Source: an uncultured Dehalococcoidia bacterium (GTDB lineage: Bacteria > Chloroflexota > Dehalococcoidia > UBA2247 > RBG-13-53-26). Taken from it: a DNA stretch of 64,000 bases. Under the pieces are notes generated by a model. The model was not told the DNA's origin. It made no database searches and was given only the letters and a program-made list of their open reading frames with translations. Of this stretch, positions 41,085 through 58,862 are shown piece after piece; position 1 is the first letter of the stretch; every line of letters starts with the position of its first letter. A program made the position numbers and the translations under genes. The stretch covers positions 598 through 64,597 of the forward strand of contig CAZTYW010000002.1 in NCBI GenBank assembly GCA_964617695.1, read 5' to 3'.

Positions 41085-41125
41085 GCCCCTTCCACTTCTG
41101 AAGTGGAAGGGGCAGATTTTATCTC
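41085..41125 (+). terminator. rho-independent terminator ending the GRE-amidohydrolase unit
   Basis: Perfect 11-bp stem GCCCCTTCCAC / GTGGAAGGGGC with loop TTCTGAA, then AGATTTTATCTC. Confidence 0.6.
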
Positions 41126-41179: not shown

Positions 41180-42268
41180 TCAGGACGACTTGTCGGATTC
41201 TGATCTACCCCCCCAGTAGGAATATGGCTGCAGCCTGTAGTAAGTCTTGAACTTCTCCCAGCGATAGTACAGTCCTCTCGGCTGGAACATCATGAACAGG
41301 ACGATTACCAGACCAAACACTATGAGCCCCATGGCCACGGGAAGCTGCCGGGCCCAGTCGGCAGGGAGATTGTCGACGAGGAATGGGTTTATGTAGTCAT
41401 TCAGCATAACCTCTAGAAGTCCGAGAAAGGTGGCACCCATGTAGACCCCGGCCGTGCTTCCCCAGCCGCCGATTATCAACATCCCTACGTACCACATGGA
41501 GTTCATAAGCTCGAACTGGTTTGGATTCACCCTGAGCTGAGAGTAGGCCCACAACCACCCTGCCAATCCGGCAAAGACGCAGCCGATAAAGAAGGCCAGC
41601 ATTTTGTAGCGAAATATGGCGATCCCGCTGACCTCAGCGGCCAATTCGTTGTCCCGAATGGCCACGAAGGCCCTCCCGGCGGCAGTCCTCTGGATATTCT
41701 TGGCGAAGAAGGTGGCCACGATCATGATCACCATGGTCAGGGCATAGAAGGCATTGCGATTGGCGAAGTCGATGGGACCCAGCCTGAGCGGCTCCAGACC
41801 CAGGCCGGAGTACCCGCCGGTGACCGAAGTGTAGTGTTCCACGAACCAAAGGATGATGAAGCTGGCGGCCAGTGTCGATATAGCCAGATAGAATCCTCTC
41901 AGCCTGAAACAGGGCAGTCCAAACAGCAGCCCCACGACGCCAGCAGACAACCCGGATATGGGCAGGCAAAGCCATCCGTTCCACCCGGACCTGACGGTAA
42001 GAATGGCAACCGCGTACGCTCCCACAGCCATGAACGCGGCGTGTCCGATGGAAAATTGCCCGCACAGCCCCGTCAACACGTGCAGGCCGAGGACTGCTAC
42101 TATGGTTATGCCCAGCATGCTCAGCCAACTGACCCAGTAGGAACTTGCAAACAAGGGGATGCTGAACAGGACTGCGGTTCCCAGGGCCAGCAGGACCCAT
42201 TGCGTCCGTGTACGCATGATGGCCATGTCTGACTCGTACCTGGTGTTGAAGAGCCCGCCGGGCAGCAC
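41180..42268 (-). CDS. branched-chain amino acid-type ABC transporter permease (LivM family)
   Basis: 362 aa, polytopic, LivM-like. Confidence 0.85.
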   Translation of the reverse strand: MLPGGLFNTRYESDMAIMRTRTQWVLLALGTAVLFSIPLFASSYWVSWLSMLGITIVAVLGLHVLTGLCGQFSIGHAAFMAVGAYAVAILTVRSGWNGWLCLPISGLSAGVVGLLFGLPCFRLRGFYLAISTLAASFIILWFVEHYTSVTGGYSGLGLEPLRLGPIDFANRNAFYALTMVIMIVATFFAKNIQRTAAGRAFVAIRDNELAAEVSGIAIFRYKMLAFFIGCVFAGLAGWLWAYSQLRVNPNQFELMNSMWYVGMLIIGGWGSTAGVYMGATFLGLLEVMLNDYINPFLVDNLPADWARQLPVAMGLIVFGLVIVLFMMFQPRGLYYRWEKFKTYYRLQPYSYWGGRSESDKSS

Positions 42269-42270
42269 TC

Positions 42271-43158
42271 TCAGATCCTCCGTATTCCTTTCAGACCGAA
42301 GAGACCGTGCGGTCTGATAATCAGAATAGCTACCATCAGAATGTATGGCAGTAGCTGCCTGAATCCGCTGACGTGCGGATCGATGTAGGTTCCGGCCAGG
42401 CTTTCTGTCAGGCCGATCACGATGGCGCCGATAAAGGCGCCGGGGATCGATTCAATCCCGCCTAGCAGCACCACAGGCAGAGCCCTCATGATGGCGAAGC
42501 CTCCTATGTTGCTGTTCACGACGAACATCGACCCCAGGAGCATGCCCCCAAGTGCGGCCGACAGGCTGCCGACCACCCAGGATAGGGCGAATATCCTCTT
42601 GACGTTTATGCCGAGGCTTTGACTGATGAGGTGGTCTTCGGATACGCATCTCATCGCCAGGCCGCTCTTGGTGGAGCGGAAGTACGACACGAATGCCAGG
42701 AACATGACCGTAGCCACGATGAAGGAAAACAGCCAGGTGTAGGGGAAGCTGACGTTTCCGATGCCAAAGCTGCCAGACGGAAAGATCTCGGGCATGACTC
42801 TGGGCGTGCCTCCCCAGATCAGCATGGCAGCCCCGTGAATAACCGAGAAGCCCAGTACCAGGGTCAGGATGAAGGTTGTCAGCCCGCTTTGCCCTATCAT
42901 GGGTCTCATTATCAAACGGTCTATGCCCAGGCCAATCAACACGCTGGCAAGCGCCAGTATTCCCAGGGCAGCCGCAAGATGCAACCCCAGTGTGGCCAGC
43001 AGCCACCAGAGGAGATAGGCCAGCAGCATCAAAATGCCGCCGTGGGCCAGGTTGAACACCTTGGTGGCCTTGAACACCACTACCACACCGAGTGCAATTA
43101 GAGCGTAGACTCCGCCGAGTAACACTCCTTCAATAGACGCCCGTAGAAAAGTGTCCAT
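42271..43158 (-). CDS. branched-chain amino acid-type ABC transporter permease (LivH family)
   Basis: 295 aa, LivH-like. Its stop abuts the livM start. Confidence 0.85.
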   Translation of the reverse strand: MDTFLRASIEGVLLGGVYALIALGVVVVFKATKVFNLAHGGILMLLAYLLWWLLATLGLHLAAALGILALASVLIGLGIDRLIMRPMIGQSGLTTFILTLVLGFSVIHGAAMLIWGGTPRVMPEIFPSGSFGIGNVSFPYTWLFSFIVATVMFLAFVSYFRSTKSGLAMRCVSEDHLISQSLGINVKRIFALSWVVGSLSAALGGMLLGSMFVVNSNIGGFAIMRALPVVLLGGIESIPGAFIGAIVIGLTESLAGTYIDPHVSGFRQLLPYILMVAILIIRPHGLFGLKGIRRI

Positions 43159-43175
43159 TCTCGCTTACTAGCTCG

Positions 43176-44366
43176 CTACTCCAGCATCAGCTTCTCTTCG
43201 GGTGCGACTGTGACCACACCCCCTTGCGTCGAACCAAAGACCTGCTGCAGGTCGATGCCGATGGCGCGGAAGAACCTGACGGTTTCTGGGGATGCTCTCT
43301 TGCCGGCGGCGTAGACCAGTCTTGCCCTGTTGAAGCCATGCTTGTCTCTCAGTGGCCGGAAGACCAGGGCTTCGGCGATGGCGTGGCGGAATCTCTTGGG
43401 CAGGCCAACGCGGTCATTGCCCATGGATTCCTCCGCTACCTCCTGGCCAATAGACAGACTCCAGTTGAACAACCTCCTTTTCAGCCGGGTGCCGTCTGCT
43501 ACATTGGTCTGAATTGCCGAGGCGATGTCCGCCCATACCCGGGGTGGATAGACCAGGACGTTTGGGGATATCTCTCTAGAGTCTTCAGGAGCGGTCTCCA
43601 CGCGCTCGGCAAAGTTGAGCTTCTGACCTTTGACCAGACAGGCGGTGAACCCCAGTGTCTGTTCGAACAGCCAGCCGGGAGTGATGACCGATACGTAGTC
43701 GTCGGTGTCGTACACCGGGTTCGACGCCAGGACGTTTTCCAACGAGGAGATCAGGAACCCGTGCGTGGCCGGCACCACCTTCAGCGAGTCGTTGGCTCCC
43801 AGGGCGAAGATTATCATCGCCAGGTCATCGCCCCTGCCATGAGCCATTTTTCGCTCGAATTCTCCCGGGTGGTTCCGCTCCCGTTCTTCTCCCAGCTTGA
43901 TAACTTCAGCCAGGCTGATCAGGATCGGGTTGTTGTAGTGCCGGAGTCCCTTCTCGTTCCAGTACACCACTCTCTGCAGCGAGGGGGCACCGTCCTTTAC
44001 CTCCAGCAGCTTGTCGACCTGCTCCTGGTCCTGGGCCAGTACGAACTTTGGCTGCGCAAGAAGCATGAGACCTTTAGTGTCCTCCGCAGACCCTGCGGGG
44101 TTGAGCCCGGTGACAATTCCCCTGGCTGCCAGTACAGCCAGCTCACACCAGAACCACTCGGGGTTGCTGTCGGCCAGTATGGATACACCGCTTCCGGCTT
44201 CGAGCCCCAAACTTGCCAGGCCTCCGAAGATGGCCTTCACCTTGTGGTAGCAGTCTTCCCAGGTATGCTCTCTCCAGACGCCGTACTCTTTCTTGCGCAG
44301 GGCCACGCGGCTACTGCCCCACTGCTGGCAGTTACGAAAGAGCAGCTTGGGGAACGTATCTTCCAC
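43176..44366 (-). CDS. AMP-binding (acyl-CoA synthetase-like) N-domain protein, apparently degenerate
   Basis: 396 aa resembling the large N-domain of ANL adenylating enzymes. The phosphate-binding loop position reads MIIFALGANDSLKV instead of (T/S)SGTTGxPKG. The ~110-aa C-terminal ANL domain is absent. Confidence 0.65.
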   Translation of the reverse strand: MEDTFPKLLFRNCQQWGSSRVALRKKEYGVWREHTWEDCYHKVKAIFGGLASLGLEAGSGVSILADSNPEWFWCELAVLAARGIVTGLNPAGSAEDTKGLMLLAQPKFVLAQDQEQVDKLLEVKDGAPSLQRVVYWNEKGLRHYNNPILISLAEVIKLGEERERNHPGEFERKMAHGRGDDLAMIIFALGANDSLKVVPATHGFLISSLENVLASNPVYDTDDYVSVITPGWLFEQTLGFTACLVKGQKLNFAERVETAPEDSREISPNVLVYPPRVWADIASAIQTNVADGTRLKRRLFNWSLSIGQEVAEESMGNDRVGLPKRFRHAIAEALVFRPLRDKHGFNRARLVYAAGKRASPETVRFFRAIGIDLQQVFGSTQGGVVTVAPEEKLMLE

Positions 44367-44503
44367 GTTCGGCAGCCTAGAATACCCTTTTCGCTATCAT
44401 TTGTGGCCTGTCGGCCCACTCGTGGGGGCGAGCCCGCGCCCCCACCGGCCCCTTCCTCCCCCGGCTAATTGCGGGGCATTGGCGCCATTCCAGTCATCAA
44501 CTT

Positions 44504-45556
44504 TCAGGATTTCAATTCCCCTGTCACCGACTGCAGCACGCTCCTGGCTTCGGCAACGATTCGCTCGATCAGCTCCTGCACGCTGGGCACGTCGTCTATC
44601 CTGCCACAGACCTGGCCGCTGGGCATCACTCCGAAATCTGTGTCACCTTCGATCATCGCTCTCACAATGCGCACGCCGCCCGCGGCCAGATGCCCCAGTT
44701 CCGAGATGGAAGCTTGGTACTCTTTCCTCATGCTCCAACCGGCGACTATGAACCGCCACCAGGAAACCCCCAGCATTCTTCGGACTTCAAGCGCGCCCGA
44801 TATCTTTTCTGTCCAGGATAGGCTCCTGCCTTCACCCAACGTGTCGGTGAACCTGTTGCTGATCACCCTCAATGGTGTGCCAGTGATGGCAGGCGTGACC
44901 ACGGTGTCGTTTTCGCTTGAGGCAAGGTATCGCTGCTTGACGCTGTCGGGGATAGGACTCTCCTTGGTCACTGCGAACCTGGTGCCCATGGCAATGGCTT
45001 CGGCCCCCAGAGCAAGGGCTGCCACAAGGCCCCTGCCATCGCAGAAGCCTCCTGCGGCCACCACCGGGATCTGGACCTTGCCTGTGATGAGCGGCAACAA
45101 CACCATAGTGGTGACTTGCCCGACGTGTCCCCCTGCCTCAGACCCCTGCACCATGACGGCATCAGCCCCGTCCTGCTCGGCCCGGACGCCGTGCCTTACA
45201 GACCCAATCATGGGCATTATCTTGATGCCGTGTCCCTTAGCTGCCCCAATCAGCCATTTGGGGTTGCCTCTGGAGTGGCAGATCAGAGGCACCTTCTCCT
45301 CGATGAAAACCTCGGCCAGCCTTTCATAACCCGGATTGCCCGCTATGAGGTTGACACCAAACGGCTTGTCAGTCAGGTCTCTAACAGCCCTGATGTCCTG
45401 TCTGATTACATCGGGTGCAAGCCGGCCTGAGGCCAGGATTCCGAGGCCGCCGGCATTGGAGACTGCTGCCACAAGCTGCGGGACTCCAACGAAATTGGCT
45501 GGTGCCTGAATGATAGGATACTTTATTTTCAGTAGATCAGTTATTCGAGTTCTCAT
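44504..45556 (-). CDS. nitronate monooxygenase / 2-nitropropane dioxygenase family (FMN-dependent) protein
   Basis: …KYPIIQAPANFVGVPQLVAAVSNAGGLGILA… NMO-family motif. Start taken at the internal ATG at 45554-45556. Confidence 0.8.
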   Translation of the reverse strand: MRTRITDLLKIKYPIIQAPANFVGVPQLVAAVSNAGGLGILASGRLAPDVIRQDIRAVRDLTDKPFGVNLIAGNPGYERLAEVFIEEKVPLICHSRGNPKWLIGAAKGHGIKIMPMIGSVRHGVRAEQDGADAVMVQGSEAGGHVGQVTTMVLLPLITGKVQIPVVAAGGFCDGRGLVAALALGAEAIAMGTRFAVTKESPIPDSVKQRYLASSENDTVVTPAITGTPLRVISNRFTDTLGEGRSLSWTEKISGALEVRRMLGVSWWRFIVAGWSMRKEYQASISELGHLAAGGVRIVRAMIEGDTDFGVMPSGQVCGRIDDVPSVQELIERIVAEARSVLQSVTGELKS

Positions 45557-45584
45557 CCAACGGACGATCTGCGGTACGCTGAAC

Positions 45585-46304
45585 CTATTCTTTTTCTCTC
45601 CAAACCCCGTCCACGAAGACCTTCTTCTCTTTCTCTTTAACGCGCACCCCACGAGAGGTGGTCAGGAATTCCTCGGGCATTGCGACCCCGGCCTCTGCTG
45701 CATATTTTGTCATTCTGGCAATCTCGACGACTTTCAAGGCCACGTTCCTCACACGCGCCATACCGAGCTTGTCATCCAGTACACCGTTCTTCAGATAGGC
45801 CGGCCTTCTGCCGAAGGCCGCTTCGCTGGCCACAGCCCAGCCCCTGGCTACCACAAAACCCGAGCCTCTGCCAACAACTTCCAGGTCTTCCAGCGCCCGC
45901 TCCATCCCCATGCCCAGGAAACCTACGGTGAGCAGGCCGGACACCTTGTTCCTGAAGTTGTAGGTGAAGAACTGGTGGTACCTCCATCTGGATATAAGTG
46001 TAGCCATGATCGGAGCGGCGCCAATATTCCATACGGGTGCTCCAAGGATCAAGCCATCACTTGCTATCATTCTATCGAATACCGCGTTGGCATCGTCCTC
46101 TATTCTGCACGGCGCCATGTTCTCTATGCACCACTGGCAATGACGGCAGAGTGCGATCTGCTTGTCGGCCAACGTGATGAACTCGGTTTCCACGCCTGGT
46201 ATCTGGGAGGCAACGTTCAGCGCCTCCTGCACCATTGTGTCACAGTTTCCGCCCTTGATGGGAGTCGCGGAGATCCCCAAAACTCTGACGTTGACAGGTA
46301 TCAT
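45585..46304 (-). CDS. NADPH-dependent FMN reductase / iron-sulfur flavoprotein-like protein
   Basis: Flavodoxin-like N-terminus (…VRVLGISATPIKGGN…) with a compact Cys cluster CRHCQWC…C. Start taken at the internal ATG at 46302-46304. Confidence 0.7.
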   Translation of the reverse strand: MIPVNVRVLGISATPIKGGNCDTMVQEALNVASQIPGVETEFITLADKQIALCRHCQWCIENMAPCRIEDDANAVFDRMIASDGLILGAPVWNIGAAPIMATLISRWRYHQFFTYNFRNKVSGLLTVGFLGMGMERALEDLEVVGRGSGFVVARGWAVASEAAFGRRPAYLKNGVLDDKLGMARVRNVALKVVEIARMTKYAAEAGVAMPEEFLTTSRGVRVKEKEKKVFVDGVWREKE

Positions 46305-46487
46305 AGATCGGGTTTCCCTCCGTTCCGAGCTTCTTCTGGTCAATTCACGCCTTCGTGGCGCCATCTGTTCCCAACTTGCGGCTGCACTCGGGTCGCCTGT
46401 TAAACCGACGCGGACTCCCATGTCCATAGCCCGCACCGGCCATCTCTGCTATTGCCGGCCCTCCGCCCACAGCCGCGGGCCCTCTAT

Positions 46488-47336
46488 CTATTGCTTCGGC
46501 TGTGCGGGGCGGGAGAATTCCTTAGGAGGCCCCTTCTTGGCCAGCTCGCAAACAAGGGCAGCAATCGGGCTGGACTGGTTCAACTCGTGCCCGATGGCCA
46601 GAGCGTAGCTGAGGTCCTTGGCACCAACGTAGTAAGTGGGCGGCGGCGGATCCGTCCACATCGACTTGAGCCATCCCCAGTTTTGCACCGAGAAACTGTT
46701 CCCGGAACCTATCTTGATGTGCTCGACGAGCAAGTCTTCACCGGCGCCGTTCTTCATACCCCAGGCTATGGCTTCGGCGGCCACCCATGCGTTGGTTATG
46801 GCGCACATGTTATTCACCAGTTTCACGATCTGGCCCATTCCAAGATCGCCACAGTAGGTGATCCTGCCCATTCTCTCCAATACGTCGCGATACTTCTCAA
46901 GCCTGTCTTTATCGCCCCCGACGCTAATTCCCAATGTTCCCGCCTCGGCCCCCATGCGGGCTCCAACCACCGGGGCATCAAACACGTCCGCCTTCTTGGC
47001 CTTGGCCGCCTCTGCCACTTTGTTGCAGAAGGTAGGAGAAAACGTGCCCATGAGGAGAATGCCGTCGCCTTCTTTCACCCCTTCCAGAAGACCGTCAGGC
47101 CCAAAGACCACCTCCTCAGCCTGTTTGTCGTTCTGCACCATGATGATGGTGGCCTCAGATGACCGGGCAACCTCTCTGGGTGTCTTGACCTCCGTGGCTC
47201 CGAGGCCCTTCATTTCCTCAATGGGCGCTCGCCTTACGTGACCGCAAACCGTCGTCTCGAAACCGCCGGTTACCACCCTCTTCGCCATAGGAAGTCCTAT
47301 ATCTCCCAGGCCAATGAATCCAACCTTCACCGTCAT
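46488..47336 (-). CDS. 3-hydroxyisobutyrate dehydrogenase-like NAD(P)-binding dehydrogenase (paralog 1)
   Basis: 282 aa. N-terminal Rossmann fold VGFIGLGDIGLPMAKR. HIBADH / 6PGDH NAD-binding family. Confidence 0.8.
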   Translation of the reverse strand: MTVKVGFIGLGDIGLPMAKRVVTGGFETTVCGHVRRAPIEEMKGLGATEVKTPREVARSSEATIIMVQNDKQAEEVVFGPDGLLEGVKEGDGILLMGTFSPTFCNKVAEAAKAKKADVFDAPVVGARMGAEAGTLGISVGGDKDRLEKYRDVLERMGRITYCGDLGMGQIVKLVNNMCAITNAWVAAEAIAWGMKNGAGEDLLVEHIKIGSGNSFSVQNWGWLKSMWTDPPPPTYYVGAKDLSYALAIGHELNQSSPIAALVCELAKKGPPKEFSRPAQPKQ

Positions 47337-47524
47337 TCTTGATTCCTCCTTTCCCGGCCGTTCTTCACCAAGTATCCCGATATGTCAATGCCTCATTGAA
47401 CCGACACCACCACGAGCCACCTTCGGCTCGAAAGACACCGGTGCCATGGTGACGTCGCTTCGCGCGGCTTGGCGCATCCCCGGGCATGTTTCCGCCGGCT
47501 CTGCCGCACAGCGCTCTATGTGTC

Positions 47525-49687
47525 TTACTTCCTCTTGTACCTCATGAACTTGTGCTCATCCAGCTCAATGTAGTTCTGAGGGGGGACGAGCAGCGTTGTC
47601 ATGGTATGCTCGACGATGGCCGGCCCGTCGACCCTGTTGCCCGCTTCCAGCAAGTCCTGCTCCCACAGGTCGAAGGTCACCCACTGCCCGTCGAAGAAGG
47701 CATCACGCTGACCTTTGTAGGCGTTCTTGGGCGGTTCTTTGCCCTGAGGCGGATGCGTGGGTATAATGGGCTTCGGTTTCTTGGCCACCGCCTCTACATA
47801 GACCTCGGTTATCTGGTAGCCTGACTCTGGATACCGGGCTCCGGCGGGATAGATGCTGGTATAGGTCTTCTCAAAAGCGCCTATCACTTTGTCGAGGTCC
47901 TCGAGACTCTGTACTCTGGCTACGTCAACAGGAACCCCCCAATTCGACATCTGACCTATGTATCGGCACGATATCCCACGCCTGAAGCTCACGTCCTCGG
48001 CTACGATGCCTTCAGCTTCGAGTTCCGTGAGCCCCCTCTCTTCCAGCTCTTGCCAGGCCTGGCTCAGAACGCTGCCCTGGAATATTTTGATCTCGTCGGG
48101 CATCTGCGGAGTCAGGAAGAAGGTGACGGCCTTGTCATAGCGATGGAAGTAGTCAGCAGCAGCCACTCCAAAAGAGGAAAACACTGCCGCCCAGGGTACC
48201 ACGATAACCTCGTTGAAGTGGATGGCGCGCTCCAGCCCCCACAGGTGGAGAGGACCGGCAGCTCCGTAGACGAGTAGAGTGAACTCAGCCGGGTTCAACC
48301 CTCTCGACAGAAGCACACCGTTGATGTGGTCGGCTACTTTGGCGTGCAGCAAGTCCAGGATCTTGCTCGACACGTCGTAGACGTCCTGGCCAAGTGGCTT
48401 GGCCACCCTCTCTGTCAACTCATGCTCCGCCCTGTCGCGGTTGACCTTGATGGTTCCTCCGAGATAGTAGTCCGGGTCCAGGTACCTCATGGTCAGGTCA
48501 ATGTCGCCGATCGTCACCTGGTCCGAGGCGTACATGGTGCCCAGGTCGGCCCTGACACTCTCGGGCCCGATGGTAATCCGCTTCGTCACCGGGTCTGCGT
48601 GTACCACGTGGCTGCAGCCGGCGCCGAGACAGTCGATGGCGATCATGGGCATCCTCAACCGGTGGCCGGAAAACTCCGGCTCCTTGTTCACCGGCAGAAG
48701 CCGGTTGGCAATCAGACCAATGTCGCAGGTGGTACAGCCCAGGTCCCAGCAAACCAGGTTGGGGATATTCAGAAAGTCGGCGATGAACTTCCCGCCGAGC
48801 AGGCCTCCAACCGGACCTGAGATGGCCGCCTCGGCCAACTTGGGATAGCGGATCGTTGCCGCCGCTCCGTAACCCAGCAAGGTCAACAACTCGTGGTTGT
48901 AGCCTTCTTTCCTGGCTGCCTCCTCCACCAGGAACAGCTTCCTCCTGGCGATCTCTGCTATGTAGCACTGAATAAGAAGGGTCTTCAGTCTTTCGTTCTC
49001 GTTGGGGACGGAACACATTTCGTGAGAGGCGACCACAGGCACGTCAAGGCCGCGCCTCTCCACCATCTCCCTGGCGATCTGGGCAATCCGCATCTCGTGG
49101 GCAGAGTTTGCATACGATGCGAGGGTTAGAATGCCAATTACCTCTACCCCGGAGTCCAGAAGTTCGGTGACTGCCTGCACTGCCTCGTCCTCCACCAGCG
49201 GAATGACGACCGTGCCGGGGAAGTAGTGGTGCTCCATGTAGTAGCTGCCAACCGAGATTCGCTCGGTCACCTCCTTGATGTTCTCAGGGTTCACCATCCA
49301 GGGCGTGTGTTCATGCAATTGCTGGTGCAGTATGTCCTCGTAGGACTGGCCTATCCAGGTGAGGCCCCTTTCCATGATGGGCATGTCGGCGAATCCCCTG
49401 GTTACGATCAAACCCACTTTGCTCCCACTCTGGGTTACCAGGATGTTGACCATCGACGTCCCGGTGTATGTGGATGACCGCGCTGCCTGATGAATCTGGG
49501 CCGTGGTCATTTCCCAACGTCGGGCCGCGTCTTCCAGCGAGCCAAGGTAGCTGATCGCCTCGTCTTCGGGGTGAGTCAGGAACTTCCCGGTAGAAAACGC
49601 TCCGTCCTCGTCGACCAGGAAGCAGTCTGTCATGGAACCGCCCGCGTCCTGGGCGATTATGTACCTCTCTTCTACCTTGTCCGCCAT
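47525..49687 (-). CDS. hydantoinase A / acetone carboxylase beta-subunit-like protein (ATP-binding)
   Basis: ~720 aa from the internal ATG at 49685-49687. Hydantoinase/oxoprolinase N-terminal plus HyuA domains. Confidence 0.8.
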   Translation of the reverse strand: MADKVEERYIIAQDAGGSMTDCFLVDEDGAFSTGKFLTHPEDEAISYLGSLEDAARRWEMTTAQIHQAARSSTYTGTSMVNILVTQSGSKVGLIVTRGFADMPIMERGLTWIGQSYEDILHQQLHEHTPWMVNPENIKEVTERISVGSYYMEHHYFPGTVVIPLVEDEAVQAVTELLDSGVEVIGILTLASYANSAHEMRIAQIAREMVERRGLDVPVVASHEMCSVPNENERLKTLLIQCYIAEIARRKLFLVEEAARKEGYNHELLTLLGYGAAATIRYPKLAEAAISGPVGGLLGGKFIADFLNIPNLVCWDLGCTTCDIGLIANRLLPVNKEPEFSGHRLRMPMIAIDCLGAGCSHVVHADPVTKRITIGPESVRADLGTMYASDQVTIGDIDLTMRYLDPDYYLGGTIKVNRDRAEHELTERVAKPLGQDVYDVSSKILDLLHAKVADHINGVLLSRGLNPAEFTLLVYGAAGPLHLWGLERAIHFNEVIVVPWAAVFSSFGVAAADYFHRYDKAVTFFLTPQMPDEIKIFQGSVLSQAWQELEERGLTELEAEGIVAEDVSFRRGISCRYIGQMSNWGVPVDVARVQSLEDLDKVIGAFEKTYTSIYPAGARYPESGYQITEVYVEAVAKKPKPIIPTHPPQGKEPPKNAYKGQRDAFFDGQWVTFDLWEQDLLEAGNRVDGPAIVEHTMTTLLVPPQNYIELDEHKFMRYKRK

Positions 49688-49691
49688 TCTT

Positions 49692-50261: not shown

Positions 50262-50270
50262 CTTCCCTCC

Positions 50271-52451: not shown

Positions 52452-52462
52452 AGCGCCTCCTT

Positions 52463-53686
52463 CTAGAGAATCGTGCCTTCGCTCTTGAGCCCGGCTATGT
52501 CATCCCAGGTATAGCCAAGGTCCAACAGGATTTCCTCTGTGTGCTGTCCCAACTCTGGCGCCAGCGACTTCACCGTGGCTGGGGTCTTGCTGAACTTGAC
52601 GGGGCTGTTTATCGCCTTGAACCGCACACCGGGGGCGTACTCCAATTCAATGAAGAAGTCGTTTTCCCAGGCTTGTGGGTCGCCGGCCACTTCCACGGGT
52701 GTCTGGATGCGCCCCAGAACCAGATCGAACTCCTGCGCTATTGCCTCCCACTCGGCAGCGGTCTTGCCGGCTATGATCTCATCCAGTGCTGCTATCAGGG
52801 TCAGGTTCTGCTCCATCCTCTTCATATGGGAGTCGAACCTGGCTTCCTTTTCCCACTCGGGCTTGCCTATTGCCTTGCAGAACGCGGGCCAGTGCCGGTC
52901 CGTTTGGGGCATTACCAGCATTATCCATTTCCCATCTTTGGCCTGATAGCAGTTCCACAACGCGTTGGTGACGCGTCTTCTGTCCGTCTGCGGCAGGTTG
53001 ACTCCCTGATGCAACGCGGTGCCAACATCGAAACTCAGCCCCCATACCGCCAGGTGATACAGATTGAGCTCGACCTTCTGGGCCACACCTGTTTTCTCCC
53101 GACAGAACAGCGCTGCTGCGATAGCTCCGGCGATAGCCGGAGAGGCCAGGTTATCCCCCAGGCCCGGCCGCTGCGGACGCAGGGCCTCACTGGGCGCCGA
53201 TAGTCGGTCCATCATGCCGCTCCTGGCCCACCACGCCGCATAGTCGAAGCCGGGCTTGTGCCGGTCGGGACCGCCGGTCCCGTACCCGGTGCACTGGCAG
53301 TAGATCAGGCTGGGGTTTATCTTGCTCAGAGTCTCGTAGTCGGCCTTTGCCCGCTCAATAGCTCTCGGATCGAAGTTTGTGGCAAAGACATCGGCGTTTT
53401 CCACCAGCTTGTAGAGTATCTCTCGGCCACGCTCCGTCATCACATTCAGGCCGATGCCCCTCTTGTTGCGATTGAAGTAGTGAAACCACATGCTGGGTTT
53501 GATGTCTGCAGGTGGCGCCTGTCCTTCTATGGCCTGCGGGAACCGCACCGGATCCCCACCCGCCTTGAAGTTCTCCACCTTGATGACTTCGGCACCCCAA
53601 TCGGCAAGAATAGCGGTGGCGGTCGGCACGAGCAGGAAGTGACCGAACTCAATTACCTTCACGCCATCGAAAGCTCCACTGCTCAT
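52463..53686 (-). CDS. family III CoA-transferase (CaiB/BaiF family)
   Basis: …FDGVKVIEFGHFLLVPTATAILADWGAEVIKVE… Start taken at the internal ATG at 53684-53686. Confidence 0.85.
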   Translation of the reverse strand: MSSGAFDGVKVIEFGHFLLVPTATAILADWGAEVIKVENFKAGGDPVRFPQAIEGQAPPADIKPSMWFHYFNRNKRGIGLNVMTERGREILYKLVENADVFATNFDPRAIERAKADYETLSKINPSLIYCQCTGYGTGGPDRHKPGFDYAAWWARSGMMDRLSAPSEALRPQRPGLGDNLASPAIAGAIAAALFCREKTGVAQKVELNLYHLAVWGLSFDVGTALHQGVNLPQTDRRRVTNALWNCYQAKDGKWIMLVMPQTDRHWPAFCKAIGKPEWEKEARFDSHMKRMEQNLTLIAALDEIIAGKTAAEWEAIAQEFDLVLGRIQTPVEVAGDPQAWENDFFIELEYAPGVRFKAINSPVKFSKTPATVKSLAPELGQHTEEILLDLGYTWDDIAGLKSEGTIL

Positions 53687-53783
53687 TTCTCCTTCAGCCT
53701 CCTTATCCTTCACGCGGCGGAGCAAGCTCCGCCGCGTGAGCAGTCATAGGAAACCTCCCAGGTCGGTCCTCCGTAACCGGGCC

Positions 53784-55010
53784 TTACTCGAGAACAATGG
53801 GCAGCCAGTCAGTAACCTTCCTCACAATATCCTCGTCTGCAGCGCTCCACTCGTATATACCGGTGTAATTCCAGGTATACCGCTTCGTGTCGCTGAAGCC
53901 CCACGTCTCGTAACCGTCCCAGGTCGTCTCAAACCCTATAGCTGTGTCATAAAAGGCCTGACTGTCGTAGTTCTCCAGCCCCACTTCCTTCACCGTTTCC
54001 TCCAGGACCTGGAAGAAAGCGTAACACTGGTGGAATCCACCTATGTAGCCTATGCCGGCATGGACCAGAGCGTCATACTGGTCCGGGTGATAGTTGCTCA
54101 GGAGCTCCTCGGCCAGCTCGACCACCGGCCCGGTCTCACCCCACCAGCGCGTTGGCTGACTGGCGAGCATTCCATCGACGGCGTCCCAGCCGGCCAGGTC
54201 AATAATCAGGTCCCTGTAGGCAGCGTGAGCGTCAGTGCCGATGAATGGGGCGTCGTATCCCTTGTCTCGATACTGCTTTATGAACGTGGACGTGCCTGTA
54301 CCGGTCGAGGGCGGGAATAAGTAGTCACAGTTCTTCAACGCCTCCACCTCACCACTCCACATGTTCACCCCCATAGGAGCCAGGAACCCACCCACCCACT
54401 CGAACTGCTGCGGATGGGCCTGGGCATAGTCCCTTATGGCGTCTCTACAGGCGATAGCATAGGGTTCCTGCCAGCCGGCGGAGCCAATCTTGGCTGGTCC
54501 GTTCGTCTCCCAGTCCCAGTCTTCCTCGCTGATCCACTGCAGAAGGGTGTCAATCAGGCCGTAGGTGGGAGAGTTGGCGCAGAATACCCAGCCGGGCGGG
54601 TCTATCAGCGGGGGAGTCGTGATCAGTGCCCATAGCGGCATCTTGTCCGTCTCGGCGCGGGTGTCCAACGTCTCCGCGGTGGTGGGCAAGGCCGTCACGG
54701 CGACCTTCGCCCCCCTGTCCCTGACCCAGTTCCAGCCAGGTATGTCGTATTTAGGGTTATACCTGGCGTCGTAAGTGACGACCTTTATCTTCGCGCCCGG
54801 GATAATGTCGTTCTCGTTGTAGTACTTGGCCAGGTCCTCTATGGCGTAGTTGATTGGCACCAGCGCCGTCGAAGCTGGCCCCGTCATGTCTGAGATATGC
54901 CCTATGATAATCTGGCCTTCTTCCTCACCTGCGCAGCCTACGCAGAGGGTGGCGATCAGAGCCAGAACCATGAGAGCAGACACGGCCACTTTCCTCAGAC
55001 CATATTTCAT
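53784..55010 (-). CDS. ABC transporter substrate-binding lipoprotein (Liv/amide-type family)
   Basis: 408 aa. Signal peptide with lipobox LCVGC. Periplasmic-binding type I fold. Confidence 0.85.
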   Translation of the reverse strand: MKYGLRKVAVSALMVLALIATLCVGCAGEEEGQIIIGHISDMTGPASTALVPINYAIEDLAKYYNENDIIPGAKIKVVTYDARYNPKYDIPGWNWVRDRGAKVAVTALPTTAETLDTRAETDKMPLWALITTPPLIDPPGWVFCANSPTYGLIDTLLQWISEEDWDWETNGPAKIGSAGWQEPYAIACRDAIRDYAQAHPQQFEWVGGFLAPMGVNMWSGEVEALKNCDYLFPPSTGTGTSTFIKQYRDKGYDAPFIGTDAHAAYRDLIIDLAGWDAVDGMLASQPTRWWGETGPVVELAEELLSNYHPDQYDALVHAGIGYIGGFHQCYAFFQVLEETVKEVGLENYDSQAFYDTAIGFETTWDGYETWGFSDTKRYTWNYTGIYEWSAADEDIVRKVTDWLPIVLE

Positions 55011-55132
55011 TTCTCCTCCTTTCTGCTCCTCTGCTCCGTTTGCCGGGCTGCAAACGCCCAGAGGAAGCCCTGTTGATGACGTAAGCTCGTCCCCATTGCC
55101 GCTATGGCTACCGGCATCCCTGTGCCGGTGGT

Positions 55133-55963
55133 CTACATCTCAGGCAGCTTCAGCACCCCGGCCCTGAACCGTTCCTCGCACAGAGTGGCCAGCGGACAGG
55201 GTTGCCCAACCTCCTGACTGATTCGCAGGGCGTATTCGAGGTCCTTCGCCCCCAGGTGAAACGTGAGTGGTGGTGGGTCAACGTTCATTGACTTGACAAA
55301 CTCCCAGTTCTGTACCACCCAGCTATCCGCAGTGCCTATTCTCATCAACTCCACCAGCAGCTCTTCGTCAGCCCCGTTCCTTATACCCCAGGATATCGCC
55401 TCGTAGGCGCCCTCAACGTTGATCATCAGCGCCATGTTATTCGCCAGCTTGACTATCTGACCCATGCCCAGTCCACCGCACAATATGATCTTACCCATGG
55501 TCTCCAGAATGGGACGGTACTTCTCTACCAGTTGCCTGTCGCCGCCGACCATTATGCCCAGCTCTCCTGTAGCAGCCCGCATGCGGGTTCCCGTGACTGG
55601 GGCATCCAGAACGCCGACACCTCTCGGCGATGCTGCGGCTGCCACCTCTCGACAGAAAGCAGGTGACAGCGTGCTCATCAGTATGATTCCTGAGCCCTGT
55701 CTCCCCGACTCGACAATGCCGTCAGGGCCCATGACCACTTCTCGCGTGGCAGTGTCGTCTCGAAGCACGGTGATGGTCACGTCGGAGGCTTGCGCTACAT
55801 CCTTTGGTGTCTTGACCTCCCGCGCACCCAGGCGCTTCACCTCGTCGACGGGCTGTCGCCTTTTGTGCCCACAGACTGTAACCTGGTAACCATGGGTTAC
55901 CAACCTCTTTGCCATGGGCAGCCCCACGTCTCCCAGGCCGATGAACCCCACCCTTTCTGCCAT
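55133..55963 (-). CDS. 3-hydroxyisobutyrate dehydrogenase-like NAD(P)-binding dehydrogenase (paralog 2)
   Basis: Clear paralog of 46488-47336: VGFIGLGDVGLPMAKRLVTHGYQVTVCGH versus VGFIGLGDIGLPMAKRVVTGGFETTVCGH, with similarity throughout. Start taken at the internal ATG at 55961-55963. Confidence 0.8.
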   Translation of the reverse strand: MAERVGFIGLGDVGLPMAKRLVTHGYQVTVCGHKRRQPVDEVKRLGAREVKTPKDVAQASDVTITVLRDDTATREVVMGPDGIVESGRQGSGIILMSTLSPAFCREVAAAASPRGVGVLDAPVTGTRMRAATGELGIMVGGDRQLVEKYRPILETMGKIILCGGLGMGQIVKLANNMALMINVEGAYEAISWGIRNGADEELLVELMRIGTADSWVVQNWEFVKSMNVDPPPLTFHLGAKDLEYALRISQEVGQPCPLATLCEERFRAGVLKLPEM

Positions 55964-56206
55964 CCTCAACCTCCTTTGCCGGCCTGCCCAATCTGCAGGA
56001 CCCCCACCAGTATCGTACCCGAGCACCGTCTGCGGTTCAATCCGCCTGAGTACTCATTCTCAATGCTAACATCGCGGGCTCGCCGTGTGTCGGTAACAGC
56101 AATGCGCCTCGGGAGAAACAGCACAATACCCACAAATCGGTACGATGTGCTACGCCATTTGGGCGAGATCTCTACGCAGATTGCGCATCATTTGTGGCAT
56201 GTTTGC

Positions 56207-56236
56207 TTGACACATGACGTTATCGTTGACTATCAT
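56207..56236 (+). promoter_or_regulatory. candidate sigma-70-type promoter for the two-component operon: TTGACA (56207-56212), 18 nt spacer, TATCAT (56231-56236)
   Basis: Read from the sequence. Lies 42 nt upstream of the response-regulator ATG, in the divergent region shared with the minus-strand catabolic array. Confidence 0.35.
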
Positions 56237-56277
56237 AGTGCTTGCCACCGCCCATCAAATCTGCCGCAGGTAGAGAG

Positions 56278-56973
56278 ATGTCTACTGCAGCTTCACCGGA
56301 GATGGTTACAGAGAAGATAAGGGTTCTCTTGGCTGATGATCATCGCGCCTTCCGCGAAGGATTGAGTCGGCTTCTTGGGGAAGAGAGCGACCTTGAGATT
56401 GTTGCTGTGGTAGGTGACGGTGCGGAGGCTGTTCGGCTCACCAGGGAGATGTCACCCGATGTTGCCATCATAGATATCGCCATGCCTGAGCTGAACGGGA
56501 TCGAGGCAATCCGGCAGATCAAGGCGGCCAGGCCTGAGACGGCTGTCGTAGTGCTGAGTGCCTATGGCTACGAGTCGTACGTGTTGCCTGCCATGGAGGC
56601 TGGAGCGGCTGCCTACCTGCTCAAAACCGTGGGTGTTCGCGACGTCGCTGGCGCTGTCAGAGCTGTGCACGCCGGCCAAACGGTGCTGGATCCGACGGCG
56701 TCTGACAAGGTTCTGACGCGCCTTGCATACGCTACAGGCCGGGTCAAATCGGAAGGCGCGCCGCGGCCGTTGCATCAACGCGAACTGGAGGTGCTTCGTC
56801 TCGGGGCTCAAGGTCTGAGTAACAAGGAAATCGCCAGCAGGCTCGTCATAGGGGAGCGTACTGTCCAGACTCATTTCCGCAATATCCTGCGGAAGCTGGG
56901 CGTTGGTTCACGCACAGAGGCAGTGCTCCACGCCCTGAGGGAGGGTTGGATCGCTCTCGACGATCTGCCCTAG
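56278..56973 (+). CDS. two-component response regulator, NarL/LuxR family
   Basis: Receiver domain (…RVLLADDH…DVAIIDIAMPELNG…) plus C-terminal LuxR-type HTH (…LSNKEIASRL.I.ERTVQTH…). Confidence 0.85.
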   Translation: MSTAASPEMVTEKIRVLLADDHRAFREGLSRLLGEESDLEIVAVVGDGAEAVRLTREMSPDVAIIDIAMPELNGIEAIRQIKAARPETAVVVLSAYGYESYVLPAMEAGAAAYLLKTVGVRDVAGAVRAVHAGQTVLDPTASDKVLTRLAYATGRVKSEGAPRPLHQRELEVLRLGAQGLSNKEIASRLVIGERTVQTHFRNILRKLGVGSRTEAVLHALREGWIALDDLP

Positions 56974-57032
56974 CTGCTGGGCCGTCAAAACAGTGCTGTG
57001 ACGGCTACTTATTGTACTCAGGAGCAAGTTTG

Positions 57033-58862
57033 ATGGAAGTCGCCAACTTTCTTACCGAGCGTTACCAGGAAATCTTTGAGGTCTTCAGCGATGCGGTGGT
57101 CCTTTGGCGGCCGGACGGCAAGATCATCGGTGCGAATGGCGCCATGGCTACCCTCACCGGTTACCCTCCCGGCGAACTTCGAGGAATGAGCGTCGCACAG
57201 TTCCTCACCCCAGACGATTTTGCCCGGCTCGTGGAGGGTCAGCGGCAACAGCTCACGGGGGAAGCCGTGAGCCGGTCCTACGAATCGGGGCTGATAAGGA
57301 AGGACGGCACGCACGTGGTTGGCGAGTGGGCCACCAAGCTGGTGACTCAGCGGGGAAAGCCTCTTGGCGTGCTGGCTGTCATCAAGAACGTCACTGAGCA
57401 GAAGCTGGTGGAAAAAGCCCTCCGCGAAGAGAGGGATAGGGCGCAACGGTATCTCGATGTTGCCGGGGTGGCCATCGACGTAATGGACGCCGGCGGAAAC
57501 ATAATGCTGCTGAACAAGAAGTCCTGCGAGATACTCGGGTACGAAGAGAATGAGATCGTTGGCCAGAACTGGTTTGACAAGATTTCCGTCGACAGGAATA
57601 GAGCCAGGGCAAAGGCGCTTTTCGCCAAGATGATTACCGGTGCGATCGAGCTGGACAAATGCCATGAAAGCCCAGTTGTGACCAAAAGCGGTGAGGAAAG
57701 GATCATGGCGTGGTATAACACCACTCTGCTACGGGATGAGGCGGGTAATGCCATTGGCGTGCTGGGTTCGGGGGAAGATATCACCGAGCGGAAGCAGATG
57801 GAGAAGGCGTTGCGGGACAGCGAGGAGAAATACCGCACGCTCTTCGAGGATTCCAGGGACGCCATCTGTATCCTCACCAGAACTGGCAAAGTCATGCATG
57901 CCAACCAGGTTGCGCTGGACCTGTTTGGTCACACCAGGGATGAAATGATGGGGCTAGACGTTTGGGAGACCCCGGTCTATCCCACTGAGGTGGAACGCTT
58001 TCGGAGTGAAATAGAGCATAGGGGCTTTGTCAGGGACTTCGCCATGAGGCTGCGCAAGAGAGACGGAACCGAGATGGACTGTCTGCTCACTTTCACCATT
58101 TGGCGCAGCGACGACGGGAGCATATCAGGATACGAGGGCAGTATCCGTGACACCACCGAGCACAAACGACTGCAGGAGAATCTTCAGCGCTATGTCACAG
58201 AGGTGACCCGGGCACAGGAGGAGGAACGCAAGCGCATTGCACGGGAATTGCACGACGAGACTATTCAGGATTTGGCCATGCTATCGCTTGACATCGAGGC
58301 CGTGATCAGGGCGAGGAAGCGGTCATCAGACGGCTCTGTCAAGGGGCTACTGCAGATTCAAGAGAAAGTCAACCGCATAGCCGAGGAACTGAGTCGGCTC
58401 AGCCATGCGCTGCGGCCAAACGTCTTGGACCACCTGGGTCTGGTACCGGCGGTGAAGGTGCTCATTGGCGACCTGAGCAAGGCCGGCAACGTTGCCATCG
58501 ACTTGCAGGTGGTTGGCCGGGAGCGGCGTCTGTCACCGGAGGTGGAGTTGGGCCTGTTCCGTATCATCCAGGAAGCCATCAGGAACATCAGGAAGCATTC
58601 GGGGGCGGCGACCGCTGCGGTGACTGTCGAGCTTGACTCTGACAAGGTCAGGGTAACGATCGCTGACGATGGTGATGGGTTCGAACTGCCGAAGAGACTG
58701 GGCGATTTGACCGCCAAGGGCAAGCTGGGGTTGGTCGGGATGCAGGAGCGGGCGCAGTTGTTCGACGGAACCCTTTCAGTCCAGTCCTCGCCGGGCGAGG
58801 GGACCAGGGTGGTGATTGAGGTGGGCAATGCTGCGTCGCCCGTTGCCGTCCACGGTGGCTGA
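57033..58862 (+). CDS. multi-PAS sensor histidine kinase (HisKA_3 + HATPase_c; NarL-partner type)
   Basis: ~610 aa. At least three PAS-like repeats, then H-box …ERKRIARELHDETIQDL…, then an ATPase domain (…RNIRKHSGA…GDGF…GLVGMQERA…). Confidence 0.85.
   Translation: MEVANFLTERYQEIFEVFSDAVVLWRPDGKIIGANGAMATLTGYPPGELRGMSVAQFLTPDDFARLVEGQRQQLTGEAVSRSYESGLIRKDGTHVVGEWATKLVTQRGKPLGVLAVIKNVTEQKLVEKALREERDRAQRYLDVAGVAIDVMDAGGNIMLLNKKSCEILGYEENEIVGQNWFDKISVDRNRARAKALFAKMITGAIELDKCHESPVVTKSGEERIMAWYNTTLLRDEAGNAIGVLGSGEDITERKQMEKALRDSEEKYRTLFEDSRDAICILTRTGKVMHANQVALDLFGHTRDEMMGLDVWETPVYPTEVERFRSEIEHRGFVRDFAMRLRKRDGTEMDCLLTFTIWRSDDGSISGYEGSIRDTTEHKRLQENLQRYVTEVTRAQEEERKRIARELHDETIQDLAMLSLDIEAVIRARKRSSDGSVKGLLQIQEKVNRIAEELSRLSHALRPNVLDHLGLVPAVKVLIGDLSKAGNVAIDLQVVGRERRLSPEVELGLFRIIQEAIRNIRKHSGAATAAVTVELDSDKVRVTIADDGDGFELPKRLGDLTAKGKLGLVGMQERAQLFDGTLSVQSSPGEGTRVVIEVGNAASPVAVHGG

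Follow-up and report, generated by a model that had tools for sequence, protein, structure and literature searches.

A conserved 14-gene cluster in an uncultured Dehalococcoidia bacterium encodes a divergent acetone-carboxylase-type enzyme whose substrate is probably not acetone

Dehalococcoidia are among the most abundant bacteria of anoxic sediments and aquifers, their carbon sources have largely been guessed from annotations, and for a decade metabolic models have taken over the annotation "acetone carboxylase". Do these genes serve acetone, and do the genes encoded around them form a pathway? The question is raised by a 64,000-nucleotide stretch of DNA from an uncultured Dehalococcoidia bacterium (contig CAZTYW010000002.1; the whole stretch is called the window in the following), in which the genes for three acetone-carboxylase-type subunits are part of an array of 12 genes on the minus strand (41180-55963). 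Together with two divergent regulator genes on the plus strand, this array makes up a 14-gene unit according to Pfam and NCBIfam. We consider it fairly probable that the unit is a single inducible catabolic operon, as predicted, of an anaerobic Chloroflexota (Dehalococcoidia-type) bacterium, combining uptake, ATP-dependent ketone carboxylation, CoA transfer and redox tailoring. A sequence-only reading of the window had named the same genes, and all of them were recovered, in place and in order, with the listing of open reading frames (ORFs) and with Pfam and NCBIfam scans.

To find related loci, species-representative genomes were scanned with the alpha subunit, which yielded 49 loci; four further loci were added from contigs encoding relatives, and all proteins of the window were compared with the resulting 53 loci (numbered with L below) by tblastn. 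Relatives of alpha at 52-85% identity are many, and nearly all of them are found in metagenome-assembled genomes (MAGs) labelled Chloroflexota or Dehalococcoidia. Locus L011 carries all 14 genes in the order and orientation of the window, including the divergent NarL-type regulator and the three-PAS kinase: kinase and response regulator are read in one direction, and the first HIBADH-family dehydrogenase (HIBADH-1), binding protein, CoA-transferase, alpha, gamma, beta, the second dehydrogenase (HIBADH-2), FMN_red protein, nitronate-monooxygenase (NMO)-family protein, AMP-binding protein, LivH and LivM in the other. Locus L012 shows the same order with 13 of the 14 genes, a homologue of the NMO gene being undetected between the FMN_red and AMP-binding genes. 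The proteins of both loci are 57-86% identical to those of the window, except for a degraded AMP-binding ORF of 262 amino acids in L011; the response regulator (61-64% identity) is divergent from the array there too, and the sensor kinase is 57% identical in both. Partial synteny is seen in L014, L009 and L007, which carry the segment from alpha to LivM or from alpha to NMO in the same order, and L001 and L005 contain the same gene set in rearranged form. Directly upstream of alpha, the CoA-transferase gene is found at 75-86% identity in seven loci (L005, L007, L011, L012, L015, L016 and L017). The conserved synteny therefore shows that the 14-gene cluster is a real unit under selection. The proposal that the genes form one functional unit, which a lack of conserved synteny would have spoken against, is borne out by this gene order. 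Alpha genes 66-83% identical to that of the window also occur in bins labelled Desulfobacterales, Syntrophobacteria or Thermodesulfobacteriota (L006, L018, L023, L030, L034 and L042), mostly on short contigs, which may reflect mis-binning or transfer between sediment lineages.

The cluster had also been described as an accessory island, and we looked for signs of recent horizontal acquisition. The GC profile is flat (0.57-0.60), and GC at third codon positions is 0.727 in the cluster and 0.724 in 24 housekeeping genes. The codon-usage distance of the cluster is 0.045, compared to 0.044 ± 0.007 when the housekeeping set is split at random into halves; tetranucleotide frequencies of the cluster correlate with the rest of the window at 0.963, and the halves of the rest correlate with each other at 0.958. 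A tRNA scan of the window detected no tRNA, an Rfam search gave no match, a repeat search found no flanking repeats around the cluster, and the annotation of the window contains no integrase or transposase. Since composition and codon usage match the flanks and marks of mobility are missing, the cluster is not compositionally distinct and not a recently acquired island, and that part of the earlier description was dropped. Nine flanking genes of the window were searched for, and none of them recurs in any related locus; the cluster thus lies in different neighbourhoods in other MAGs, which says little at such evolutionary distance.

Which type of enzyme do the carboxylase genes encode? The three adjacent genes (47525-52451) have the Pfam families of the alpha, gamma and beta subunits of acetone carboxylase. 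Searches of the PDB placed each subunit closest to acetone carboxylase: alpha matches 5svb_A with 322 bits, compared to 149 for acetophenone carboxylase and 75 for caprolactamase; beta matches 5m45_B with 475 bits, compared to 279 and 194; and gamma matches 5svb_C with 123 bits, compared to 43 for acetophenone carboxylase and no match to caprolactamase. The metal ligands of acetone carboxylase alpha are Glu89, His150, Asp153 and His175 (PMC5543143). In 5SVB these residues align with E75, H136, D139 and H161 of the window protein, and 13 relatives have these four residues without exception. All members of the superfamily, hydrolases included, share the His-Asp-His triad, and the position of the first ligand is occupied by Glu in acetone carboxylase and by Asp in hydrolases and acetophenone carboxylase (PMC8453981). 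The zinc site of the gamma subunit, formed by Cys74, 76, 124 and 127 in acetone carboxylase (PMC5543143), is found here as C77, C79, C128 and C131, both pairs of which align with 5svb_C. The beta subunit contains the phosphate-1 motif DAGGSMTD, and its phosphate-2 motif is a clade-specific variant, DLGCTTCD versus DLGGT(T/S)FD (residues 367-376, about 48590-48560). The variant with two cysteines occurs in the window and in most Dehalococcoidia relatives among L001-L030; DLGGT(T/S)FD is present in the beta subunits of L014, L019, L025, L029, L039 and L041 and in proteobacterial and Firmicute relatives. The Cys4 site in gamma, PDB scores far above those of the hydrolases and the gating Glu point, as far as sequence can tell, to a carboxylase, as the sequence-only reading had suggested for this hydantoinase-like complex, and not to an oxoprolinase or hydantoinase.

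Judged from its sequence, the enzyme is thus of the acetone-carboxylase type by structural criteria but lacks both a close relationship to the characterised enzymes and an acetone-sized pocket. Alpha shares 31% of its residues with the Xanthobacter enzyme, and identities for all 53 related loci are about 28-33% over full-length alignments, whereas the two characterised acetone carboxylases, from Xanthobacter and Aromatoleum, share 68% identity (PMC10865871). In the Xanthobacter enzyme, Trp401, Trp438, Trp479, Phe456 and Met187 have been reported to narrow the product pocket to the size of acetoacetate (PMC8453981). W401, W438, W479, F456 and Met187 align with a gap, G424, P464, I443 and Leu173, respectively, in a pairwise alignment at 31% identity that is interrupted by gaps close to two of the three tryptophans. 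Within the clade, Gly424 and Pro464 hardly vary. Because of the low identity of alpha, the replaced pocket residues, an importer for polar solutes and paralogues in differing gene contexts, the substrate is probably not acetone. Acetone had been listed as one plausible substrate; with the pocket tryptophans absent, an alpha subunit this divergent and a binding-protein importer present it is less likely than that implied, and the accompanying caution that no substrate can be assigned from the sequence was right. The likeliest substrate is a polar acid with an oxo, hydroxy or enone function that exceeds acetone in size, and our confidence in any particular compound is low.

The paralogues extend this picture. 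Eleven of about 30 MAGs hold two or three alpha paralogues in differing gene contexts (for example L021/L028/L032, L005/L008/L044, L035/L040/L052 and L043/L045), and in L001 a second alpha gene directly follows beta. The paralogous clusters of L003/4 and L016/17 contain SDRs and an OYE/Pyr_redox_2 reductase, that of L055 contains an OYE, a CoA ligase, a zinc-dependent alcohol dehydrogenase (Zn-ADH) and beta-oxidation genes, and L051, from the cultured Desulfofundulus thermosubterraneus, encodes a family III CoA-transferase with ACAD, HADH, ECH and thiolase. HIBADH, CoA-transferase, ECH and NMO are also found beside the carboxylase in two more distant loci, L039 and L041. Across paralogous and distant clusters the partners of the carboxylase are SDR, Zn-ADH or HIBADH; OYE or NMO; CoA-transferase or ligase; and ECH, ACAD, HADH and thiolase. 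The common theme is a conversion of an alcohol or enone to a ketone, followed by carboxylation, formation of a CoA ester and beta-oxidation, with tailoring enzymes that vary by substrate. Uptake, carboxylation, CoA transfer and redox chemistry, the scheme proposed for the window, is also the best reading of these clusters with their SDRs, OYE ene-reductases, CoA ligases or transferases and beta-oxidation genes. NarL-type regulators paired with PAS/HisKA_3 kinases likewise adjoin paralogous clusters (L002, L016/17 and L059).

In the window, the two HIBADH paralogues and the pair of NMO and FMN_red proteins would be responsible for tailoring alcohol and enone functions. HIBADH-2 is 56% identical to HIBADH-1 and scores below all NCBIfam cut-offs, as does the CoA-transferase with respect to the equivalog cut-offs. 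The NMO-family protein reaches 298.6 bits with the FabK model TIGR03151, compared to a cut-off of 453.1, its gene context is catabolic, and its best PDB match is Thermotoga FabK (5gvh/5gvj, 240 bits); it is probably a FabK-like ene-reductase or dehydrogenase and not FabK itself. The FMN_red protein contains a compact, Isf-like CX2CX2CX6C motif (cysteines 97, 100, 103 and 110 of the long ORF), its only solved relative is the flavone ene-reductase FLR (7D38), and its gene always adjoins the NMO gene in relatives.

For the importer, a binding protein and both permeases are encoded, and the two ATPase subunits that would complete a LivJHMGF-type (HAAT) system are not. Annotation of the ORFs in the 64 kb revealed no ABC ATPase gene; the DnaC-like ATPase at 28622-30031 gave a single ABC_tran match below threshold. 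No such gene was observed in the syntenic loci either. The AlphaFold model of the binding protein (pLDDT 93.8) has a LivJ-type fold, and a sequence search of the PDB gave one weak match. Foldseek with this model retrieved the fold of LivJ, urea and aromatic-acid binders at 13-19% identity, with amino acids, urea, aromatic, fatty and 2-oxo acids as known ligands. Binders of amino acids, urea, aromatic acids and fatty acids were matched equally well, and an assignment of the ligand class from this protein was abandoned.

The AMP-binding protein had been called degenerate, correctly: its P-loop region reads ALGANDSLKV in comparison to the motif TSGTTGxPKG, and it ends before the C-terminal domain, the site of the catalytic lysine in ANL enzymes, after about 333 of the 384 profile positions, and does not have the features of an ANL acyl-CoA synthetase. 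Orthologues in L012 (398 amino acids, 16883-18079) and L014 (399 amino acids, 7862-9061) are 59-60% identical and stop at the same residue, and the homologue in L001 has 623 amino acids and an intact loop, TAGTTGLPKG. The lengths of 120 database homologues are bimodal, about 395-417 and 586-660 amino acids; the P-loop is absent in all 66 of the short homologues, and 50 of 57 end in the same alignment column. A fresh or decaying pseudogene can be dismissed, as the same truncation point and degenerate loop are present in more than 60 sequence clusters. Directly behind the truncated gene there are always LivH and LivM genes; in three unrelated contexts (L058-L060, 7001-8250), divergent short forms are each directly followed by two LivH/LivM-type genes, and ABC ATPase genes are mostly not nearby such sets. 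The truncated synthetase homologue therefore looks like a pseudoenzyme, and a probable conserved accessory of the LivH/LivM permease pair.

How is the unit regulated? The two divergent genes encode a NarL/FixJ-type two-component system, with REC and GerE domains in the regulator and HisKA_3 and HATPase_c domains in the kinase. No membrane segment is seen in the sequence of the three-PAS kinase, which is predicted to be soluble and cytoplasmic. The TTGACA-18-TATCAT promoter noted earlier in the control region is present and is the best sigma-70-like site in 18 kb; it reads along the plus strand and drives the regulator operon instead of the catabolic array. It recurs as TTGACA-18-TATCAT in L011 and TTGACA-18-TATTAT in L012. 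Upstream of HIBADH-1, only one block is common to the window, L011 and L012, GGATTSAAMYCRRGACRG followed by TAnnAT. Its -35 box, 17-nucleotide spacer and -10 box lie at 56040-56012 on the minus strand, and the corresponding elements are TTCAAA-17-TATCAT in L011 and TTCAAA-17-TAGCAT in L012. This element would be a weak promoter of the kind that needs an activator. An AAGGAGG sequence is found 6 nucleotides before the HIBADH-1 ATG at 55963.

Candidate binding sites for the regulator were found as repeats. The 12-mer ATCATTTGTGGC has exactly two exact copies in the 64 kb, at 56187 and 44396, both intergenic in the cluster. The 8-mer ATTTGTGG has three copies, again all intergenic within the cluster; two form an inverted pair in the control region, and the third is located at 44399-44406, upstream of the AMP-binding gene. 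The repeat ATTTGTGG/ATCATTTGTGGC is significant within the window; L011 and L012 lack it in the orthologous regions. A conserved operator was thus rejected, and since the repeat is not conserved in these two loci it is kept only as a candidate operator. A second 12-mer shared by the two regions, CGCGGGCTCGCC, occurs at 56073 and, reversed, at about 44428, in a GC-rich hairpin after the NMO gene.

The coordinates of the features are collected in Table 1. Several start codons were shifted downstream from those of the longest ORFs, based on the alignment starts of homologues and on Shine-Dalgarno-like sequences. Intergenic gaps on the minus strand measure 2-188 nucleotides. A scan for terminator-like hairpins found none in the gaps inside the array; a strong hairpin follows its last gene and marks the 3' boundary of the array.

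Table 1. Features of the 14-gene unit and its surroundings, in coordinates of the window
Feature	Position	Strand	Evidence and remarks
Glycyl-radical enzyme	37629-40031	+	PF02901 and PF01228; PFL2/glycerol-dehydratase family; RVAGY glycyl motif
Hairpin with 15-bp stem between the convergent LivM and Amidohydro_2 genes	41083-41115		Best terminator-like scan match of the region
LivM-type ABC permease	41180-42268	-	PF02653 at 4e-43; 65-73% identity, same position in L001, L011, L012 and L014
LivH-type ABC permease	42271-43158	-	PF02653 at 1.5e-33; 70-76% identity in syntenic loci
AMP-binding protein, truncated homologue of long-chain acyl-CoA synthetase	43176-44366	-	396 amino acids; PF00501, profile positions 2-333 of 384
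Candidate operator, second exact copy of 12-mer ATCATTTGTGGC	44396-44407	+	30-40 nt upstream of the start of the AMP-binding gene
NMO-family FMN-dependent enzyme, FabK-like	44504-45556	-	PF03060 at 2e-74
FMN_red-family flavoprotein	45585-46304 (start may be 46364)	-	PF03358 at 4e-19
Second HIBADH-family beta-hydroxyacid dehydrogenase (HIBADH-2)	46488-47336	-	PF03446 and PF14833
Carboxylase beta, Hydantoinase_A	47525-49687	-	Three Pfam domains
Carboxylase gamma, Acetone_carb_G	49692-50261	-	PF08882 at 4e-31
Carboxylase alpha, Hydantoinase_B	50271-52451	-	Pfam match
Family III CoA-transferase, CoA_transf_3	52463-53686	-	PF02515 at 1e-101
Solute-binding (lipo)protein, LivJ-type, Peripla_BP_6	53784-55010	-	PF13458; signal peptide ending ...LCVGC
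First HIBADH-family dehydrogenase (HIBADH-1), first gene of the array	55133-55963	-	PF03446 and PF14833
Conserved promoter-like element GGATTGAAC...GAC.G for the catabolic array	56012-56046	-	-35 TTGAAC, 17 nt, -10 TACGAT
Inverted pair of 8-mer ATTTGTGG, candidate regulator-binding sites	56130-56137, 56190-56197		Control region
Promoter of the regulator operon, TTGACA-18-TATCAT	56207-56236	+	11 of 12 positions matched
NarL/FixJ-type response regulator, REC and GerE HTH	56278-56973	+	PF00072 and PF00196
Sensor kinase, 3xPAS-HisKA_3-HATPase_c	57033-58862	+	Pfam

Starting from these genes, with their intact metal, zinc and ATP motifs, we infer the following order of steps, redox direction and type of substrate. 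The regulator pair, transcribed from its own strong conserved promoter, would activate the 12-gene array from the weak activator-type promoter. The lipoprotein binding protein and LivH/LivM would import a small polar compound together with the P-loop-less synthetase-like partner, and the ATPase subunits would be encoded elsewhere. The HIBADH-type dehydrogenases and the pair of FabK-like enzyme and Fe-S flavoprotein could then adjust hydroxyl/keto and C=C functions, either yielding or processing the ketone. Beta would phosphorylate the enolisable ketone and bicarbonate with ATP, and the metal site of alpha would join both to a beta-keto acid. This acid, or its reduced beta-hydroxy form, would be converted by the family III CoA-transferase to a CoA ester for breakdown of the beta-oxidation type; a crotonase gene is located nearby.

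Several points weigh against this proposal. The operon contains no thiolase or 3-hydroxyacyl-CoA dehydrogenase, and the downstream route is thus incomplete. Carboxylation at the expense of ATP is costly for a strict anaerobe, and the characterised sulfate reducers avoid it, degrading ketones by a different, non-carboxylase route (PMC7888143, PMC8084838). The importer may not work as assumed, because LivG/LivF ATPase genes are missing from the window and from all related loci. In addition, carboxylase activity is ascribed to the clade by homology, transcription of the array as one unit is a prediction, and the pocket comparison depends on the alignment described above.

Four other explanations have to be weighed against it. 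The nearest at hand is a genuine acetone or butanone carboxylase operon, in which acetone is carboxylated to acetoacetate, and the CoA-transferase then activates this product for cleavage to acetyl-CoA. Among solved structures, the best relatives are indeed acetone carboxylases, the gamma subunit and the Glu89-type ligand are present, and the literature reads the homologues in RBG-1351 and DEH-C11 in this way (PMC3971608, PMC4959651). We nevertheless regard it as unlikely: the identity of alpha is less than half of that between the two characterised enzymes (31% versus 68%; PMC10865871), the three pocket tryptophans are absent (PMC8453981), acetone does not need a binding-protein importer, neither a thiolase nor a family I 3-oxoacid CoA-transferase is present, two HIBADH genes and an ene-reductase pair would have no role in the breakdown of acetone, and many MAGs contain two or three paralogues in differing gene contexts. 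An ATP-dependent ring-opening hydrolase of the hydantoinase, 5-oxoprolinase or lactamase type, degrading an N-heterocycle or lactam imported by an ABC system of the amino-acid type, is very unlikely. The superfamily includes such hydrolases and shares the His-Asp-His triad with them (PMC8453981), transporters of the LivHM/binding-protein family often carry amino acids, amides or urea, and an Amidohydro_2 gene adjoins the array; however, the hydrolases have A- and B-type subunits only, and gamma, which is present here, is taken to distinguish acetone carboxylases (PMC8453981; PMC4959651). The scores to hydrolases are also far lower, the gating residue is Glu and not Asp, and the Amidohydro_2 gene is encoded on the other strand beyond the hairpin, with one weak, displaced homologue (28% identity, L044).

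The enzyme set itself mirrors a reductive sequence, from ketone and CO2 via the beta-keto and beta-hydroxy acid, CoA ester and enoyl-CoA to acyl-CoA, which would serve as electron sink or for carbon assimilation and not for breakdown with energy gain. HIBADH would then yield the beta-hydroxy acid, crotonase the enoyl-CoA and the FabK-like reductase, fed by the Fe-S flavoprotein, the acyl-CoA; the NMO protein is closest to enoyl reductases, and HIBADH, CoA-transferase, ECH and NMO lie beside the carboxylase in the distant L039 and L041 as well. Such an operon would spend ATP with no evident return, the direction of the dehydrogenases cannot be read from the sequence, and the paralogous clusters contain full oxidative beta-oxidation sets, which makes this explanation quite unlikely. 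Finally, the 17-kb unit could be an artefact of reading one strand, consisting of chance neighbours or several small operons. Three gaps of 122-188 nucleotides could hold internal promoters, and a sub-operon under its own control is hinted at by the 12-mer that is repeated ahead of the AMP-binding gene. The synteny with L011 (14 genes) and L012 (13 genes) at 57-86% identity, together with the failure of all nine flanking genes to recur in related loci, largely refutes this idea, which we consider extremely improbable.

Which of the neighbouring genes belong to the predicted carboxylation operon? The cluster is flanked by housekeeping genes on both sides, DnaC-like, DnaD-like, DnaB and L9 on the left (28.6-32.5 kb) and RecO, RecR and DnaX on the right (58.9-62.4 kb). 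The crotonase gene (34666-35448), reported earlier as just upstream of the array, is in fact located beyond its 3' end, separated by three plus-strand genes. A crotonase 63-70% identical to it adjoins the regulator pair of the paralogous carboxylase cluster in L016/L017; the association thus recurs, though the gene is not contiguous with the array here.

The glycyl-radical enzyme had been tied to the array, and this link was not upheld. The enzyme scores below every NCBIfam equivalog cut-off, and it is flanked by the gene for a secreted 500-amino-acid VWA-like protein (35934-37436) and by the Amidohydro_2 gene (40103-41017), which takes the place after it and does not encode an activase. An activase-like radical-SAM gene was found nowhere in the 64 kb. 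Tblastn detected no homologues of the enzyme or of the 500-amino-acid ORF in the 53 related loci, and a single weak homologue of the Amidohydro_2 protein, at a different position. Being convergent to the array and separated from it by the hairpin, and without co-occurrence or an activase in the window, the glycyl-radical enzyme was rejected as a member of the pathway; its presence speaks for an anaerobic lifestyle. In its Cys loop, SNCMSW, the second residue after the Cys is Ser and not Glu. The enzyme may have a specificity outside the assigned ones. A 624-amino-acid ORF at 11973-13847 (plus strand) has a CxxxCxxC radical-SAM motif near 12996 and is too long for a glycyl-radical activase.

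Elsewhere in the window, a 900-amino-acid protein (9442-12144, plus strand) is an unusual fusion of a holin-like domain with four transmembrane segments, a type I phosphodiesterase domain and a Yip1 domain. A 294-amino-acid ORF (63037-63921, minus strand) matches only the C-terminal third of the NiFe hydrogenase large subunit and is a fragment or has a mis-called start. An ORF for an M20-family amidohydrolase (32114-33874, plus strand) overlaps a 477-amino-acid ORF without family match (32492-33925, minus strand), and homology supports the plus-strand reading only, from about residue 200 on.

What would follow from the carboxylation operon as proposed? The data suggest that the "acetone carboxylase" genes of Dehalococcoidia are a distinct multi-copy clade in conserved regulated operons, with importers and redox enzymes unfit for acetone. 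A bolder combination, which we find doubtful, is that the short-alpha enzymes of Dehalococcoidia are ATP-dependent carboxylases for sedimentary polar oxo, hydroxy or enone acids, and not for acetone, which together with LivHM and an obligatory P-loop-less pseudoenzyme partner constitute a new anaerobic carboxylation route. If this were true, each carboxylase would work with dedicated dehydrogenases, ene-reductases and a CoA-transferase of its own, a methyl-ketone acid might for example be converted via a 3-oxo-dicarboxylate to its CoA ester, and the truncated synthetase would be a previously unrecognised transporter accessory. Beside LivHM this protein is in any case a small puzzle of its own in transporter biology. 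Identification of the substrates would show which recalcitrant carbonyl compounds Dehalococcoidia consume, and also how a strict anaerobe affords a carboxylation that is costly in ATP. Targets that could be cloned are the operon's alpha-beta-gamma enzyme, its binding protein, and the regulator along with the candidate operators. The finding is unsurprising in kind, and it is a defined handle on what these abundant uncultured bacteria eat.

In the literature searched, no characterised system has a homologue of acetone carboxylase, a family III CoA-transferase and an NMO enzyme together, the conserved 14-gene operon is not described, and no member of the clade has been characterised. "Acetone carboxylase" genes have been reported in the Chloroflexi RBG-1351 (Hug et al., 2013; PMC3971608) and DEH-C11 (Wasmund et al., 2016; PMC4959651). 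They come from the same phylum, probably belong to the same clade and are known from sequence prediction only. These papers report carboxylase subunits only and assume acetone; the 14-gene unit, the regulator, the pocket differences and the expansion of paralogues are not described there. Like the system of the window, the two-component hydrolases caprolactamase, 5-oxoprolinase and hydantoinase (HyuAB/CapAB/OplAB) contain A- and B-type subunits, carry the His-Asp-His triad and need bicarbonate and ATP for their chemistry. They have no gamma subunit, hydrolyse instead of forming a C-C bond and are matched more weakly here (75-194 bits); in NCBIfam, CapA reaches 275 and CapB 77 bits compared to a cut-off of 1000, and in the window the genes for alpha and beta flank one for gamma.

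Acetophenone carboxylase (Apc) of Aromatoleum aromaticum (5L9W) belongs to the same superfamily, and there too carboxylation is followed by CoA activation of the beta-keto acid, as in our reading of the window. Apc has five subunits, two Hydantoinase_A-type chains and a gating Asp, whereas the window encodes one Hydantoinase_A protein and has a gating Glu; the Apc equivalogs of NCBIfam reach 276, 155 and 34 bits here, compared to cut-offs of 1500, 1500 and 250. In two cultured Firmicutes, L051 (Desulfofundulus thermosubterraneus DSM 16057) and L048 (Paradesulfitobacterium ferrireducens), a short-alpha alpha-gamma-beta set of the same clade is likewise encoded beside a family III CoA-transferase and a crotonase, with a function predicted from sequence. 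Alpha identity is 35-37%, and an MFS transporter, an IclR regulator, a PrpD-family protein and a full beta-oxidation set are found in place of the HIBADH genes, flavoenzymes and ABC importer of the window. The closest characterised system is AcxABC of Xanthobacter autotrophicus Py2 and Aromatoleum aromaticum (5SVB, 5M45), with the same three subunit families, the Glu/His/Asp/His metal ligands in alpha, the Cys4 zinc site in gamma, ASKHA-type phosphate motifs in beta and, presumably, the same ATP-dependent phosphorylation of enolate and bicarbonate with coupling at a distant metal site. In comparison to AcxABC, alpha of the window is about 50 residues shorter, besides its low identity and missing pocket tryptophans, and its operon, without a thiolase, combines the gene order alpha-gamma-beta with a family III CoA-transferase, two HIBADH proteins, a flavoenzyme pair, an ABC importer and NarL-type two-component control in an anaerobic Chloroflexota host.

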